Shown here one piece after another: positions 19,337 to 32,302 of a stretch of 64,000 nt of DNA. The stretch is from Bacillota bacterium. Lineage in GTDB: Bacteria; Bacillota; Limnochordia; JAAZLZ01. The stretch spans positions 2,014 to 66,013 of the forward strand of contig JAAYLV010000001.1 of assembly GCA_012521755.1 (NCBI GenBank), in the 5' to 3' direction. The position numbers and the translations under genes were made by a program. The notes under the pieces were generated by a model. It saw nothing but the letters and a program-made list of their open reading frames with translations. It was not told where the DNA came from and ran no database searches. Positions within the stretch are counted from its first letter, which is position 1. Every line of letters begins with the position of its first letter.

Positions 19337-19987
19337 GTGAAAAAGCCCTTGATCGGAGCATTGGCAGCAGTACTAATCCTTGCGGGAGCAGCTGGAGCGA
19401 CCACCTTGGGCGGTGGCGTGGGTTGGACAAAGGCAACGGCCGAGCATGGGGAAGAGTCAAGCTTGGAAGAACGGGCCTGGGTTTTCGATGGGAACGTCGA
19501 CTTGGGTCTGCTCAGGCTTGGCGGCAGCTACCTGATGCTGATGGATGAGAAAGAAAATCCCCAGGCCGACTACACCATGTACGCCGGCGGCGTTGAATTG
19601 CGACTCCCCTTAGGGCCTCTGCCTTTGAAGGCTTATGTTGGTGGCGGATACACAGGCGAGGACCTGTCCTTTGGGTCGGCTAAGATCGAAGGGGAGGGCT
19701 TCTTTGTCGGCGGACGGGCCTTAGCTGACTTGGACGGCGTCCTTCTCGAGGGCTACTATCAGCACTCGCCTCGCTTTTCGTGGGTTGAGACAACCGATGG
19801 CGGGGAAGTGGAGGGTGAAGCCGTCATGGCCCGGTACGGTGCCAGTTTGCGATTTCCCGTCCTTTGGCCCCTCAACATCGTCATCGGGTACAAAGGCGGC
19901 ACCCTTGAGCCCGGGGATGATTATCAAGGTGAACTGAAGAAGGTCCAGACCAATGTTTTCACCGCGGGAGGCGCCATTTCTTTCTGA
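19337..19987 (+). CDS. Secreted beta-barrel-like protein (OmpW/porin-like; C-terminal ...GGAISF)
   Basis: Signal peptide, then alternating hydrophobic/polar beta-strand dyads (KAYVGGGYTG, NIVIGYKGGT, NVFTAGGAISF) and a C-terminal Phe. Confidence 0.4.
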   Translation: MKKPLIGALAAVLILAGAAGATTLGGGVGWTKATAEHGEESSLEERAWVFDGNVDLGLLRLGGSYLMLMDEKENPQADYTMYAGGVELRLPLGPLPLKAYVGGGYTGEDLSFGSAKIEGEGFFVGGRALADLDGVLLEGYYQHSPRFSWVETTDGGEVEGEAVMARYGASLRFPVLWPLNIVIGYKGGTLEPGDDYQGELKKVQTNVFTAGGAISF

Positions 19988-28285: not shown

Positions 28286-28314
28286 TTTACATCCCGTAAG
28301 ATCGAATCTATAAT
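28286..28314 (+). promoter_or_regulatory. Sigma-A-type promoter TTTACA-17-TATAAT for the M16 peptidase gene
   Basis: Near-consensus hexamers with 17-nt spacing. Confidence 0.45.
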
Positions 28315-29607: not shown

Positions 29608-29973
29608 GTGGATCGACTTGAACACATTTTTCAGTTGCAGCGCAAGTTTGATGAGGAGCTCATCGAAAGCCGCGGGTTGCAGTACGATTTGTCCACCTGG
29701 CTGCAAAAAGAAACCCTCGCCATCGTTGCTGAGCTTGCCGAACTCCTCAACGAAGTCAATTTCAAGTGGTGGAAAAACCCCCAGCCTGTAGACCGAGAGA
29801 AGGTCAAGGAAGAGCTGGTGGACATCCTCCACTTCTTCGTCAGCATGTGCATTAAGTGCGACATCTCTCCAGAGGAACTCTACCAGGGTTATTTAGCCAA
29901 GAACGAAGAGAATTTCAAACGTCAGCATGGCACCTCTGCCCGCAGGGGATATGAGGCTCCTTCCCGCGATTGA
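29608..29973 (+). CDS. MazG-like nucleotide pyrophosphohydrolase (YpjD / dimeric dUTPase-like)
   Basis: All-alpha NTP-PPase signature ETLAIVAELAELLNEVNFKWWK and EELVDILHF. GTG start after AGGAGG. Confidence 0.55.
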   Translation: MDRLEHIFQLQRKFDEELIESRGLQYDLSTWLQKETLAIVAELAELLNEVNFKWWKNPQPVDREKVKEELVDILHFFVSMCIKCDISPEELYQGYLAKNEENFKRQHGTSARRGYEAPSRD

Positions 29974-30042
29974 CTGCTTAGCATCGATTTGTTAATCTAG
30001 ATTTAACCGGGCCCGCCGGCCCATGCTAAAGGGGGATTTAGC

Positions 30043-31311
30043 ATGTGGTATCAGCGGGTCCAATTGTTTCTGTACACCGGCATCATCTTGTTATTGTTAG
30101 CAAGTCCAGGAAGAGTGAACTTCGGTGTGCGTATGGAATGGGAGGAGGGTTTGCTCCGCCCGATTCTCCACTATGGCCGGGTGGGCTCCTTGACCCACGT
30201 AGAAGCAGAGTTGGGGCGAAAGTCCCAGGAGGAGTGGGGGCTATTGTCCGGGCGACTTGGAGTGGCGCCTGGCAATTGGAGTTTGCGGCTGATGTACAAT
30301 GATGAACATATCAGCTTCACCGATCCCTTCCGGATGGTGACGAAAGGCGTTCGCCGCGAGGATAGTTGTGGAGGAGTGCTGGTAGGGGATGTTGGCCGAC
30401 AACGGTTTGTCGGCCTTTATGTGCGTGACTTTCCCTATCCCCGCCGCACGGGCCACTTGGCAGGGACCCAATGGGAGTGGCGGGGCGATGGGCTTCACTT
30501 GGGCTGTGCCGGCATCGCCCAGCACCTGGAGGCGGACTGGTACGCGTGGATGTATAATGTCTACGCTCGCGCCCTCCTTGGCAAGCTGGAACTTGGGGGA
30601 GCTATCGGCAAGATCAACAGGGACGGTGAAGATGGGGCAGGTCTGGCTACCTTCCGCTATCCCACTTCTTGGGGTCACGTTTCCTGGACTTATCAACACA
30701 TCGGGGAAGGATGGCGATCTTGGGCCAACTGGGAAGATCCCTATCGGCGGGACAGGCGGGGTTCGACCGTGGGGATTCGCTGGCGCCACGATCGCTGGGG
30801 CCGGGTATTGCTCGAAGTTAAGCGGCTCACCGATCTGGCGGGTGTGCAAAGGGATGAAGGAATGGTCCTCGATTACTTGGGGTGGAAGATCCGGGACTGG
30901 CGCTGGCGGGTGCGCTTTGAAGATCGCAATGGTCAACATCGCCTAGAGACGGAAGCTTATCGCGGTCCTTGGAGCTGCGCTTTCGTGGCGGTGGAGCAGG
31001 CGGCGGGATGGGATCGGCGCGTCCGCGTCCGGGGGAAGATCCTTCCCTGGCTGTCCGCGGCAGTGGGATTTCAAGAGTTGGAAAGACGTTGGCGGCTTCA
31101 GCTTGACCTGCAAGTGAAGGAATGGACGGTGCGGGGGATTGGCAAGGTCCGGCAGCGGGAAGATAAGAACCGCTATTACTACCTGCGGGCCGCGCGGGAG
31201 TTTGGACGGAGCCAGGTATTCCTGGAGCTTGGACGCTACGACCGGGGTCGGCTCGATGCTTACTGGGTTCCCGAAAAAACAGTCAACTTGGGTTGGGAGA
31301 TATCCTTTTGA
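30043..31311 (+). CDS. Hypothetical Trp/Arg-rich secreted protein, beta-barrel-like (C-terminal ...NLGWEISF)
   Basis: Signal-peptide-like N-terminus, very high W/R/G content, alternating-strand patterns, C-terminal Phe. No recognisable family. Confidence 0.4.
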   Translation: MWYQRVQLFLYTGIILLLLASPGRVNFGVRMEWEEGLLRPILHYGRVGSLTHVEAELGRKSQEEWGLLSGRLGVAPGNWSLRLMYNDEHISFTDPFRMVTKGVRREDSCGGVLVGDVGRQRFVGLYVRDFPYPRRTGHLAGTQWEWRGDGLHLGCAGIAQHLEADWYAWMYNVYARALLGKLELGGAIGKINRDGEDGAGLATFRYPTSWGHVSWTYQHIGEGWRSWANWEDPYRRDRRGSTVGIRWRHDRWGRVLLEVKRLTDLAGVQRDEGMVLDYLGWKIRDWRWRVRFEDRNGQHRLETEAYRGPWSCAFVAVEQAAGWDRRVRVRGKILPWLSAAVGFQELERRWRLQLDLQVKEWTVRGIGKVRQREDKNRYYYLRAAREFGRSQVFLELGRYDRGRLDAYWVPEKTVNLGWEISF

Positions 31312-31343: not shown

Positions 31344-31598
31344 ATGCTTTACTCGGAGCTAGCCGGAAAGGAGATTATCAGCATCGACGAGGGGATTCGC
31401 CTGGGGCTGCTCGATCGGGCTGATGCGATCATTGATACGGAAACGGGACGATTGACGGCGCTCATCCTCCCTGTTCCCGGTGCCCGCCGCTTTGACCGGA
31501 AAAGGTGGATGATGTTGCCGTGGCACGGGATCAAGAAAATTGGACTGGACTTGTTGATCGTTGATATGTCCCAGGCTCGGGATGTGGGCAAGCCCTGA
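31344..31598 (+). CDS. YlmC/YmxH family sporulation protein (PRC barrel)
   Basis: MLYSELAGKEIISIDEGIRLGLL...DTETGRLTALIL. RBS GGGGGTGATGGGA. Confidence 0.75.
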   Translation: MLYSELAGKEIISIDEGIRLGLLDRADAIIDTETGRLTALILPVPGARRFDRKRWMMLPWHGIKKIGLDLLIVDMSQARDVGKP

Positions 31599-31669: not shown

Positions 31670-32158
31670 ATGGGAAAAGTAATTGCGACCTTCAATTCCC
31701 GCAATCAGGCGGAAGAAGCAGTCAGCGCCATGCGGGACAAGGGTCTTAACCCAGAAGAGATCTCCATTGTGGCTAAGACCGCGGGTAAGAAAGGCCGCGG
31801 CGATATGGAAACGGGCGGCGAAATGGGAGCTATGGACGTGTCCGAGGGAACCGCGTGGGGCGGAGCCCTCGGTGGGTTGACCGGCTTGCTGGCGGGTGCG
31901 GGAGCGCTAGCCATTCCCGGCATCGGCCCCATCGTTGCCGCTGGGCCTTTGGCGGCGACCTTGTCGGGAGCAGTGGCCGGTGGGGTGGCCGGGGGTCTCA
32001 TTGACCTTGGCATTCCCGAAGACCGTGGCCGTTACTACGAGGAAGAAGTCAAGCGGGGCAAGATCCTGGCAGTGATCGAGTCCGATGATGAGAGCAAGCT
32101 GGACGATGCTGTCGATGTTTTGAAGGAGTATGGAGCAGACGATGTAGAGACCCATTAA
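31670..32158 (+). CDS. General stress protein, YflT/DUF1269-like (glycine-zipper segment)
   Basis: MGKVIATFNSRNQAEEAVSAMRDKGLNPEEISIV... then a Gly/Ala-rich zipper and an acidic C-terminus. Confidence 0.5.
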   Translation: MGKVIATFNSRNQAEEAVSAMRDKGLNPEEISIVAKTAGKKGRGDMETGGEMGAMDVSEGTAWGGALGGLTGLLAGAGALAIPGIGPIVAAGPLAATLSGAVAGGVAGGLIDLGIPEDRGRYYEEEVKRGKILAVIESDDESKLDDAVDVLKEYGADDVETH

Positions 32159-32210: not shown

Positions 32211-32302
32211 TGGACCTTTGCTTGACAGGCAGAATCTTTTGTAGGAAAATGGAGGCAACATACAGGCAATGGGCATGTTCTTGCTTAAGGGGAGGATCGC
32301 CA

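Follow-up and report, generated by a model that had tools for sequence, protein, structure and literature searches.

The locus

We analyzed a 64,000-nucleotide stretch of DNA from an uncultured Bacillota bacterium (assembly GCA_012521755.1, contig JAAYLV010000001.1, positions 2,014 to 66,013; hereafter the window), and within it an open reading frame (ORF), here called the target, that encodes a Trp/Arg-rich orphan protein. The target runs from 30043 to 31311 on the forward strand, with an ATG start, 422 codons and a TGA stop. We find that it is a real, conserved gene, and on balance it probably encodes a lineage-specific outer-membrane beta-barrel of a diderm Firmicute (Limnochordia), most likely a channel that lets anionic solutes or an anionic polymer through. 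The window covers a core stretch of the chromosome that is colinear with Bacillus and contains many sporulation genes. Its genes run in the order spoIIIAE-AH, accBC, xseA, ispA, recN, spoIVB, spo0A, steA and mctB, followed by GT2 and GT4 genes, a sleB-like gene, two pda genes, a GH18-SH3 gene on the reverse strand, and mlpA (M16). After mlpA come dUTPase_2, the target, ymxH, a yflT-like gene, dapB, dpaA, dpaB, asd, dapG and dapA, then a GntR regulator with a TRAP transporter and rnj, and the region continues to ylmE, proC and ylmH. This order is common to all target-bearing contigs, including that of the most distant homolog, P0007.

Directly 5′ of the target in every case lies a gene for a dimeric dUTPase_2 (29608-29973, forward strand; PF08761, E 3e-26), and 32 nt 3′ of it lies ymxH (31344-31598, forward strand), which encodes a YlmC/YmxH PRC-barrel sporulation protein (TIGR02888, E 6e-18). 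The original prediction had placed a 422-aa ORF at these coordinates, between a MazG-like gene and ymxH in an mlpA-ymxH-dpaAB cluster; coordinates, start, stop and gene order are all confirmed, and the MazG-like neighbor belongs to the superfamily named but is more precisely the dimeric dUTPase_2. The gaps along mlpA-dUTPase_2-target-ymxH-yflT are 11, 69, 32 and 71 nt, and no terminator-like site was found in the intergenic gaps from mlpA to yflT. Upstream of mlpA we observe a sigma-70-like promoter match, TTTACA-17-TATAAT (28286-28314, forward strand), which is a match to the consensus alone (11/12). Together, the short gaps, the lack of a terminator-like site and the promoter match suggest a five-gene transcription unit that includes the target, and co-transcription of mlpA, dUTPase_2, the target, ymxH and yflT is plausible. 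A further sigma-70-like match (10/12) lies upstream of dapB at 32222-32250 on the same strand.

Inside the target ORF itself, at 30394-30415 on the forward strand, there is a terminator-like sequence, a perfect 9-bp inverted repeat GGCCGACAA-CGGT-TTGTCGGCC followed by TTTATGTG. We rejected it as a terminator: none of the three other lineages keeps the repeat intact, and it is probably a chance match. Downstream of ymxH, the YflT-like protein (31670-32158, forward strand) combines a YflT domain at its N terminus with a long hydrophobic segment, rich in Gly/Ala and resembling a glycine zipper, GGALGGLTGLLAGAGALAIPGIGPIVAAGPLAATLSGAVAGGVAGGLIDLGI; its gene adjoins ymxH even in lineages that lack the target.

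Using MlpA as an anchor, we examined five further lineages whose MlpA is 59-63% identical. In all five, mlpA is followed by a trimeric dut gene (PF00692) and then by ymxH (in one of them by a Spo0E-like gene), with gaps of 21-92 nt. Since none of these outgroups carries the target in this slot, the target is clade-specific. A dUTPase_2 gene or a trimeric dut gene thus occupies one and the same slot (loci L011, L012, L013, L017 and L018), which looks like non-orthologous displacement. The dUTPase_2 gene and the target always occur together. All phage homologs of the dUTPase_2 are <40% identical to it, giving no sign of a recent mobile-element origin. The P0007 lineage also has a five-gene block between yflT and dapB (Glu_cyclase_2, AF_1253, two ArsA-like ATPase genes and MarR; L007 12248-14877, equivalent to L015 12774-15481) that is absent from the window and from the other relatives.

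The target is a real and clade-restricted gene

The target is preceded by a Shine-Dalgarno sequence, AAAGGGGGA (30028-30036, forward strand), 6 nt 5′ of the ATG, and its AAGG(A/G)GGA form is kept in all relatives. The composition of the encoded protein is extreme, with 13.0% Arg (55 residues), 11.8% Gly and 5.9% Trp. Across 15 long neighboring ORFs the means are 7.4% Arg and 0.8% Trp, a rate at which 3-4 Trp would be expected in the target where 25 are found. The protein carries a net charge of +14/+15, its mature form has an isoelectric point (pI) of 9.75, and the motifs WxxR, RWR and DxR occur 8, 3 and 3 times, so that the Trp, Arg and Gly richness and the repeated motifs first noted by eye are borne out by the counts.

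Several observations establish the target as a gene. Its ratio of nonsynonymous to synonymous substitution rates (dN/dS) is 0.11-0.15 at a dS of 0.76-0.93 (Nei-Gojobori, against two relatives 84% and 80% identical), a constraint akin to that of the flanking genes (0.05-0.16), and it is 1269 nt long in all three close lineages with zero indels. We considered foreign codon usage and rejected it, as G+C content at third codon positions (GC3, 0.659) and an index resembling the codon adaptation index (0.734) fall within the range of 23 neighboring genes. Given the low dN/dS, the absence of indels and the native codon usage, the idea that the ORF is an artefact of high G+C content, which the original prediction had named as a possible refutation, fails. 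Between the window and the genome of P0007, no gene of the locus has diverged faster than the target, which is 39% identical where 19 neighbors are 46-72% identical. Rapid divergence is common among envelope proteins.

Database searches placed the protein in no known family. Pfam gave no match to the target (E<=1) or to any of the four homologs (E<=10), NCBIfam and PHROGs held no family for the target, and neither phmmer nor a profile hmmsearch matched any Protein Data Bank (PDB) sequence at E<=10. The most conserved loop peptide gave only a chance match in the PDB (E 3.5). Searched by word index, 5.8 billion proteins yielded five matches, all 71-100% identical to the target. An exhaustive phmmer comparison with 1.84 billion cluster representatives contributed one distant full-length relative, P0007 (39% identity, 396 aa), and nothing beyond a Limnochordia subclade. 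A profile that included P0007 found no further relatives. Among species-representative genomes of GTDB there are three target loci, two in digester metagenome-assembled genomes named ‘Bacillota bacterium’ and one in a ‘Limnochordia bacterium’, and altogether about four uncultured lineages from digesters make up the range of the family. The public copies are all named ‘hypothetical protein’ (for example NLN15727.1, NLM95448.1, MGI6035933.1 and MGI6037056.1). The protein was thus, as had been proposed, without recognizable family and previously uncharacterized, and homology to a known cytoplasmic family, which would have told against an envelope role, was found in none of Pfam, NCBIfam and the PDB.

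Five of the retrieved copies (P0004, P0005, P0006, P0008 and P0009) are frameshifted or read-through versions, most likely from indel-prone assemblies; P0006, for example, runs past WEISF into EGVHTLEG, which is intergenic sequence. A tblastn search of phage and plasmid collections gave no target match and the BFVD viral structures nothing meaningful, so a mobile-element origin of the barrel is not supported.

The homologs are labelled Limnochordia, and a distribution restricted to diderm Firmicutes, raised as a question beforehand, agrees with the finding that all relatives fall within a subclade of this class, which is documented as diderm. According to PMC11456536, Taib et al. 2020 found outer-membrane marker genes in all 46 UBA genomes of Limnochordia that they analyzed (see also PMC11448272).

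Predicted export signal and C-terminal strand

Residues 1-23 (30043-30111, forward strand) form a predicted Sec signal peptide, with MWYQR as n-region, VQLFLYTGIILLLLA as h-region and SPG as c-region. The signal peptide was judged by inspection, and we infer the cleavage site from this layout. The only strongly hydrophobic 19-residue segment of the target is residues 5-23 (the top Kyte-Doolittle window of 19), and residues 2-20 are helical in model 1 of a first AlphaFold2 (AF2) run. P0007 has the same n/h/c layout, MRYWWAFFLLLISPWVSG, with QE following the presumed cleavage point. No lipobox Cys was found near the N terminus of the target.

At the opposite end, NLGWEISF (31285-31308, forward strand) is a beta-signal-like strand of the form polar-x-G-x-x-hydrophobic-x-F. 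This end is NLGWEISF in three lineages and RVGYLYSF in P0007, and G417, S421 and F422 are invariant. The pattern G-x-x-hydrophobic-x-[FWY] closes just two of the window's 192 stop-to-stop segments of >=100 aa: the target and an ORF at 19337-19987. The hydrophobic N terminus and the aromatic-x-aromatic C-terminal strand of the original prediction therefore correspond to a Sec-type layout and a beta-signal pattern, both shared in form by P0007.

The ORF at 19337-19987 (forward strand) lies between spoIVB/DUF1538 and spo0A and encodes 216 aa with a pI of 4.6. It has a textbook signal peptide, VKKPLIGALAAVLILAGAAGA, a C terminus TAGGAISF of the same ‘ISF’ type as the target, and a weak Porin_4 match (E 0.005). 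It is conserved in L014 and L016 (where it ends GGAVSF), and the corresponding position at the edge of contig L015 contains a truncated ORF that ends GLGVVLYF. It is probably a small outer-membrane barrel inserted in another sporulation locus. Homology between this protein and the target was considered and rejected (BLASTP E 3.5).

A predicted beta-barrel with an Arg-rich interior

The mature region (399 aa; 30112-31308, forward strand) is predicted to form an antiparallel transmembrane beta-barrel of about 24-26 strands. A first AF2 run, on five near-identical or frameshifted sequences, gave a mean predicted local distance difference test score (pLDDT) of 34 and was discarded. The five frameshifted or read-through copies, which degraded that alignment, were left out of a second run in which the signal peptide was removed and P0007 was included. 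This second model reached a mean pLDDT of 70.8 and a predicted template modeling score (pTM) of 0.58, and is an all-beta up-and-down meander with 26 strands averaging ~10 residues. The modelling suggested at the outset has thus produced a barrel-like meander, at moderate confidence. Foldseek matched the model to membrane barrels alone, the top matches being the LptD structures 8h1r, 8h1s, 5ixm and 5iva (E 4e-5 to 1e-3).

The strand pattern is typical of a membrane barrel. The outward face is 68% hydrophobic and, pooled over strands, contains L25, V21, W13, A10, Y8 and F6, most of the Trp being at strand ends; the inward face contains R25, G18, E13 and Q10. The observed hydrophobic contrast between the faces was reached in 0 of 1000 within-strand shuffles, and the period-2 hydrophobic moment, computed with no reference to the structure, is elevated as well (z about 2). 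Of the eight connections of >=5 residues, seven (23, 17, 16, 8, 6, 6 and 5 residues) fall on the odd-to-even side of the strand map, and the opposite side has turns of 2-3 residues and one of 7. With a periplasmic N terminus, the side with the long connections is external. Additionally, 17 of the 18 positions deleted in P0007 fall in connections or at strand edges. An internal duplication, hinted at by two DP[FY]R loops, was rejected (hhalign of N- versus C-terminal half, E 0.49). Altogether, the target shows four class features of outer-membrane beta-barrels: a predicted signal peptide with no lipobox, alternation of faces, asymmetry of short turns and long loops, and a C-terminal beta-signal.

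Conservation between the target and P0007 is highest in the long loops. The connection b13-b14 (residues 221-237, GEGWRSWANWEDPYRRD; 30703-30753, forward strand) is the most conserved segment, with 76% identity, and its region contains the most conserved stretch, WANWEDP. The connection b25-b26 (residues 398-413, RYDRGRLDAYWVPEKT; 31234-31281, forward strand), with the core YDxGRLDAYW, is 62% identical, and the connection b5-b6 (residues 86-108, NDEHISFTDPFRMVTKGVRREDS; 30298-30366, forward strand), with the core HxSxxDPFRxV and a low pLDDT, is 48% identical. Because no other part of the protein is as well conserved as these loops, it is probable that they fold into the lumen or across it. Identity is 40% at lumen-facing positions and 27% at lipid-facing ones, where hydrophobicity is kept at 72 of 92. 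Arg occupies 25 of the 134 lumen-facing positions, and 16 of these 25 are retained as Arg or Lys in P0007. All four homologs retain a pI of 9.75-9.95 and a Trp content of 6.0-7.7%. A channel would be expected to show such a pattern, its lumen and in-folding loops being functional and its lipid face needing merely to be greasy.

Proposed function and its alternatives

These observations support the large-porin reading of the original prediction, and we favor the interpretation of the target as a channel in the outer membrane. In this scheme, the N-terminal signal peptide would direct export through Sec, and NLGWEISF, which is observed as a motif, would be recognized by BamA as a beta-signal. 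The 399-residue mature chain would then fold into a compact barrel of ~24-26 antiparallel strands of ~10 residues, or ~15 residues per strand, with a lipid-facing surface rich in L, V, W, Y and F and periplasmic turns of 2-3 residues; the model and the periodicity of the sequence point to this folding step. The lumen would be dominated by Arg, together with Glu, Gln and Gly, in a protein of mature pI near 9.8, and three conserved external loops (SFTDPFR, WANWEDPYRRDRRG and GRLDAYW) would probably form a constriction or binding site in or over it. An Arg-rich lumen with conserved loops would make conduction of an anionic solute or anionic polymer the most likely activity. The target is probably transcribed with mlpA, dUTPase_2, ymxH and yflT in a mother-cell sporulation/dipicolinate region and, going by location alone, might act in sporulation or germination.

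Several points weigh against this interpretation. The structural model was built from 4 non-redundant sequences, and of the five AF2 models two reach a pLDDT of ~70 and three lie at 35-58. The pLDDT is <=55 in the three long loops and over the first ~60 mature residues, and ~50 in the first five strands, such that closure of the barrel, its exact number of strands and the placement of its loops are predictions of the model. The TM-scores to every solved barrel are 0.3-0.4, and thus it is the fold class alone that is supported. The two strand faces were set by taking the more hydrophobic phase, which inflates their contrast, and the shuffle control uses the same rule. Anion selectivity is suggested by composition alone. 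Within the 64-kb window, the part of this genome that was covered, neither bamA nor lpx is present, and the outer membrane of the host is documented at class level. Finally, a plug-less 26-strand barrel would be a very wide pore, with a Cα diameter estimated at ~48 Å (n = 26, 4.4 Å spacing, ~40 degrees tilt), and no partner that could fill it is evident at the locus. To our knowledge, the known barrels of such size (LptD, ushers, MtrB and TonB-dependent transporters) are all plugged or filled. The width problem implies that loops or charged side chains occlude the lumen, that a partner or cargo fills it, or that the strand count is too high.

The question of what fills the pore leads to the alternative that we take most seriously, although we consider it unlikely: a large outer-membrane barrel that does not conduct solutes but ensheathes or translocates a partner protein or polymer, as LptD/LptE and the chaperone-usher pores do, or as MtrB does around MtrA. 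Its lumen, being cationic, would in this case hold or pass an anionic macromolecule such as DNA, an acidic polysaccharide, or lipopolysaccharide (LPS) or lipid head groups. However, we found no hidden Markov model (HMM) similarity to LptD, ushers or MtrB/PioB even at E<=10, and the target lacks a plug, a periplasmic domain and a jellyroll at its N terminus. Nor does a clade-specific partner adjoin it: ymxH and yflT are also present in the outgroups that lack the target and encode proteins with no signal peptide, and the constant companion is a cytoplasmic-type dUTPase alone. The strand count on which the likeness draws is itself uncertain.

Somewhat more doubtful is the possibility that the target is an outer-membrane protein of the sporulation or germination stage, made with the mother-cell genes around it, which would pass dipicolinate or cortex fragments or be among the first proteins to populate the outer spore membrane as it becomes the outer membrane. 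The setting is suggestive, since the genes from mlpA/dUTPase_2 to ymxH-yflT-dapB-dpaA-dpaB lie on the same strand with short gaps and no terminator-like sites between them, and sleB, two pda genes, GH18-SH3, spo0A, spoIVB and spoIIIA are nearby. A cationic lumen would also suit the dianionic dipicolinate that the adjacent dpaAB makes. The genes ymxH/ylmC have been described as mother-cell sporulation genes (PMC9332280), and in Acetonema longum some outer-membrane proteins are germination-specific and such proteins are installed de novo in the outer spore membrane (PMC13018214). All of the support for this role is, however, a matter of location. The nearest syntenic relatives sporulate, judging by gene content, and keep the sporulation block with no target, which rules out a core sporulation function. 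Moreover, the candidate promoter upstream of mlpA is sigma-70-like, no sporulation-sigma promoter was identified, and mlpA and dut-type genes are not sporulation-specific.

We think it quite unlikely that the target is not a barrel but a secreted or wall-associated beta-rich protein whose Trp/Arg surface binds anionic wall polymers, or, as the original prediction had it, an amyloid-like envelope fiber. Trp/Arg-rich sequences are typical of carbohydrate or polyanion binders, and the AF2 model is of moderate confidence, drawn from 4 sequences, where the shallower alignment gave a pLDDT of 34. It is the paired features of the outer-membrane class, at both ends of the chain and along its strands, that lead us to prefer the barrel.

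A more speculative idea, to which we give little credence, is that a minimal, plug-less, Arg-lined barrel of ~26 strands has, in one Limnochordia subclade, been recruited to the sporulation/dipicolinate locus of the mother cell, where at a specific stage it conducts a polyanion, for example Ca-dipicolinate or cortex fragments. If true, a barrel of ~15 residues per strand would be as economical as VDAC and a new architectural type; acting while the outer membrane of the spore becomes a true outer membrane, it would be the first sporulation-dedicated outer-membrane channel described. That the target is a spurious or decaying ORF, as its G+C content of ~59-62%, its lack of a family and the overlapping long ORFs at 30241-30939 (reverse strand) and 30389-30946 (forward strand) might suggest, has a negligible chance in view of its low dN/dS at high dS, its identical length in three lineages, the occupation of the same slot by the 39% identical P0007 with conserved motifs, its strong Shine-Dalgarno sequence and its native GC3.

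Comparison with known outer-membrane barrels

We compared the target with the large barrels already described. LptD, a 26-strand LPS translocon with an LptE plug, resembles it in being the top Foldseek match and in the predicted ~26 strands. However, LptD is recognized by PF04453 plus OstA/LptD_N, whereas the target has no such HMM match (E<=1 to 10), no beta-jellyroll and no LPS-cluster context; the barrel fills its whole mature chain, and its context is one of sporulation and lysine/dipicolinate genes. The FimD/PapC ushers (24 strands, PF00577) are only 6-9% identical to the target, which has no match to their HMM, is about half their size, lacks their plug and their N-terminal and C-terminal domains, and has no chaperone or pilin genes nearby. 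MtrB/PioB (PF11854), the 26-strand sheath of a decaheme cytochrome, likewise gave no HMM match; the target is much shorter, and its locus contains no multihaem cytochrome genes.

OmpM, the SLH-porin that tethers the outer membrane in diderm Firmicutes, combines an N-terminal SLH domain with a 16-strand porin barrel, in contrast to the target, which has no SLH or porin HMM match and ~26 predicted strands. OmpM, OccD/OprD, LamB and OprP have 16-18 strands, are mostly trimers and are usually acidic, in contrast to the pI of 9.8 of the target, and none of the four homologs matched Porin_1, Porin_4, OprD, LamB or Porin_O_P at E<=10. The target therefore belongs to none of these families, whether LptD, usher, MtrB/PioB, OmpM or classical porin.

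There is a parallel in kind with the orphan outer-membrane proteins of Acetonema longum, which are also signal-peptide-bearing predicted barrels of no family in a diderm spore-former (PMC13018214). The exhaustive HMMER scan detected no sequence relation between them and the target, and none of those listed has >16 predicted strands (PMC13018214). Such orphans are common in these genomes: 12 of the 46 predicted outer-membrane proteins of A. longum have no known function (PMC13018214). Most probably, the target is an outer-membrane beta-barrel and a substrate of the beta-barrel assembly machinery, and it probably represents a new, clade-restricted family within this class, of unusual composition and probably of unusual architecture.

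Diderm Firmicutes, and Limnochordia especially, are central to the debate on the origin and loss of the outer membrane, and their outer-membrane proteomes are almost unknown. To these the target would add a sequence-isolated family with a pI of ~9.8, 6-8% Trp and ~26 short strands in a chain of 399 residues that has neither plug nor accessory domain. A correct model would raise the questions of how so wide a barrel stays closed and which anionic cargo passes through it. The target, with its fixed slot in a sporulation/dipicolinate block, is a candidate for studying envelope remodeling in two-membraned spore-formers.

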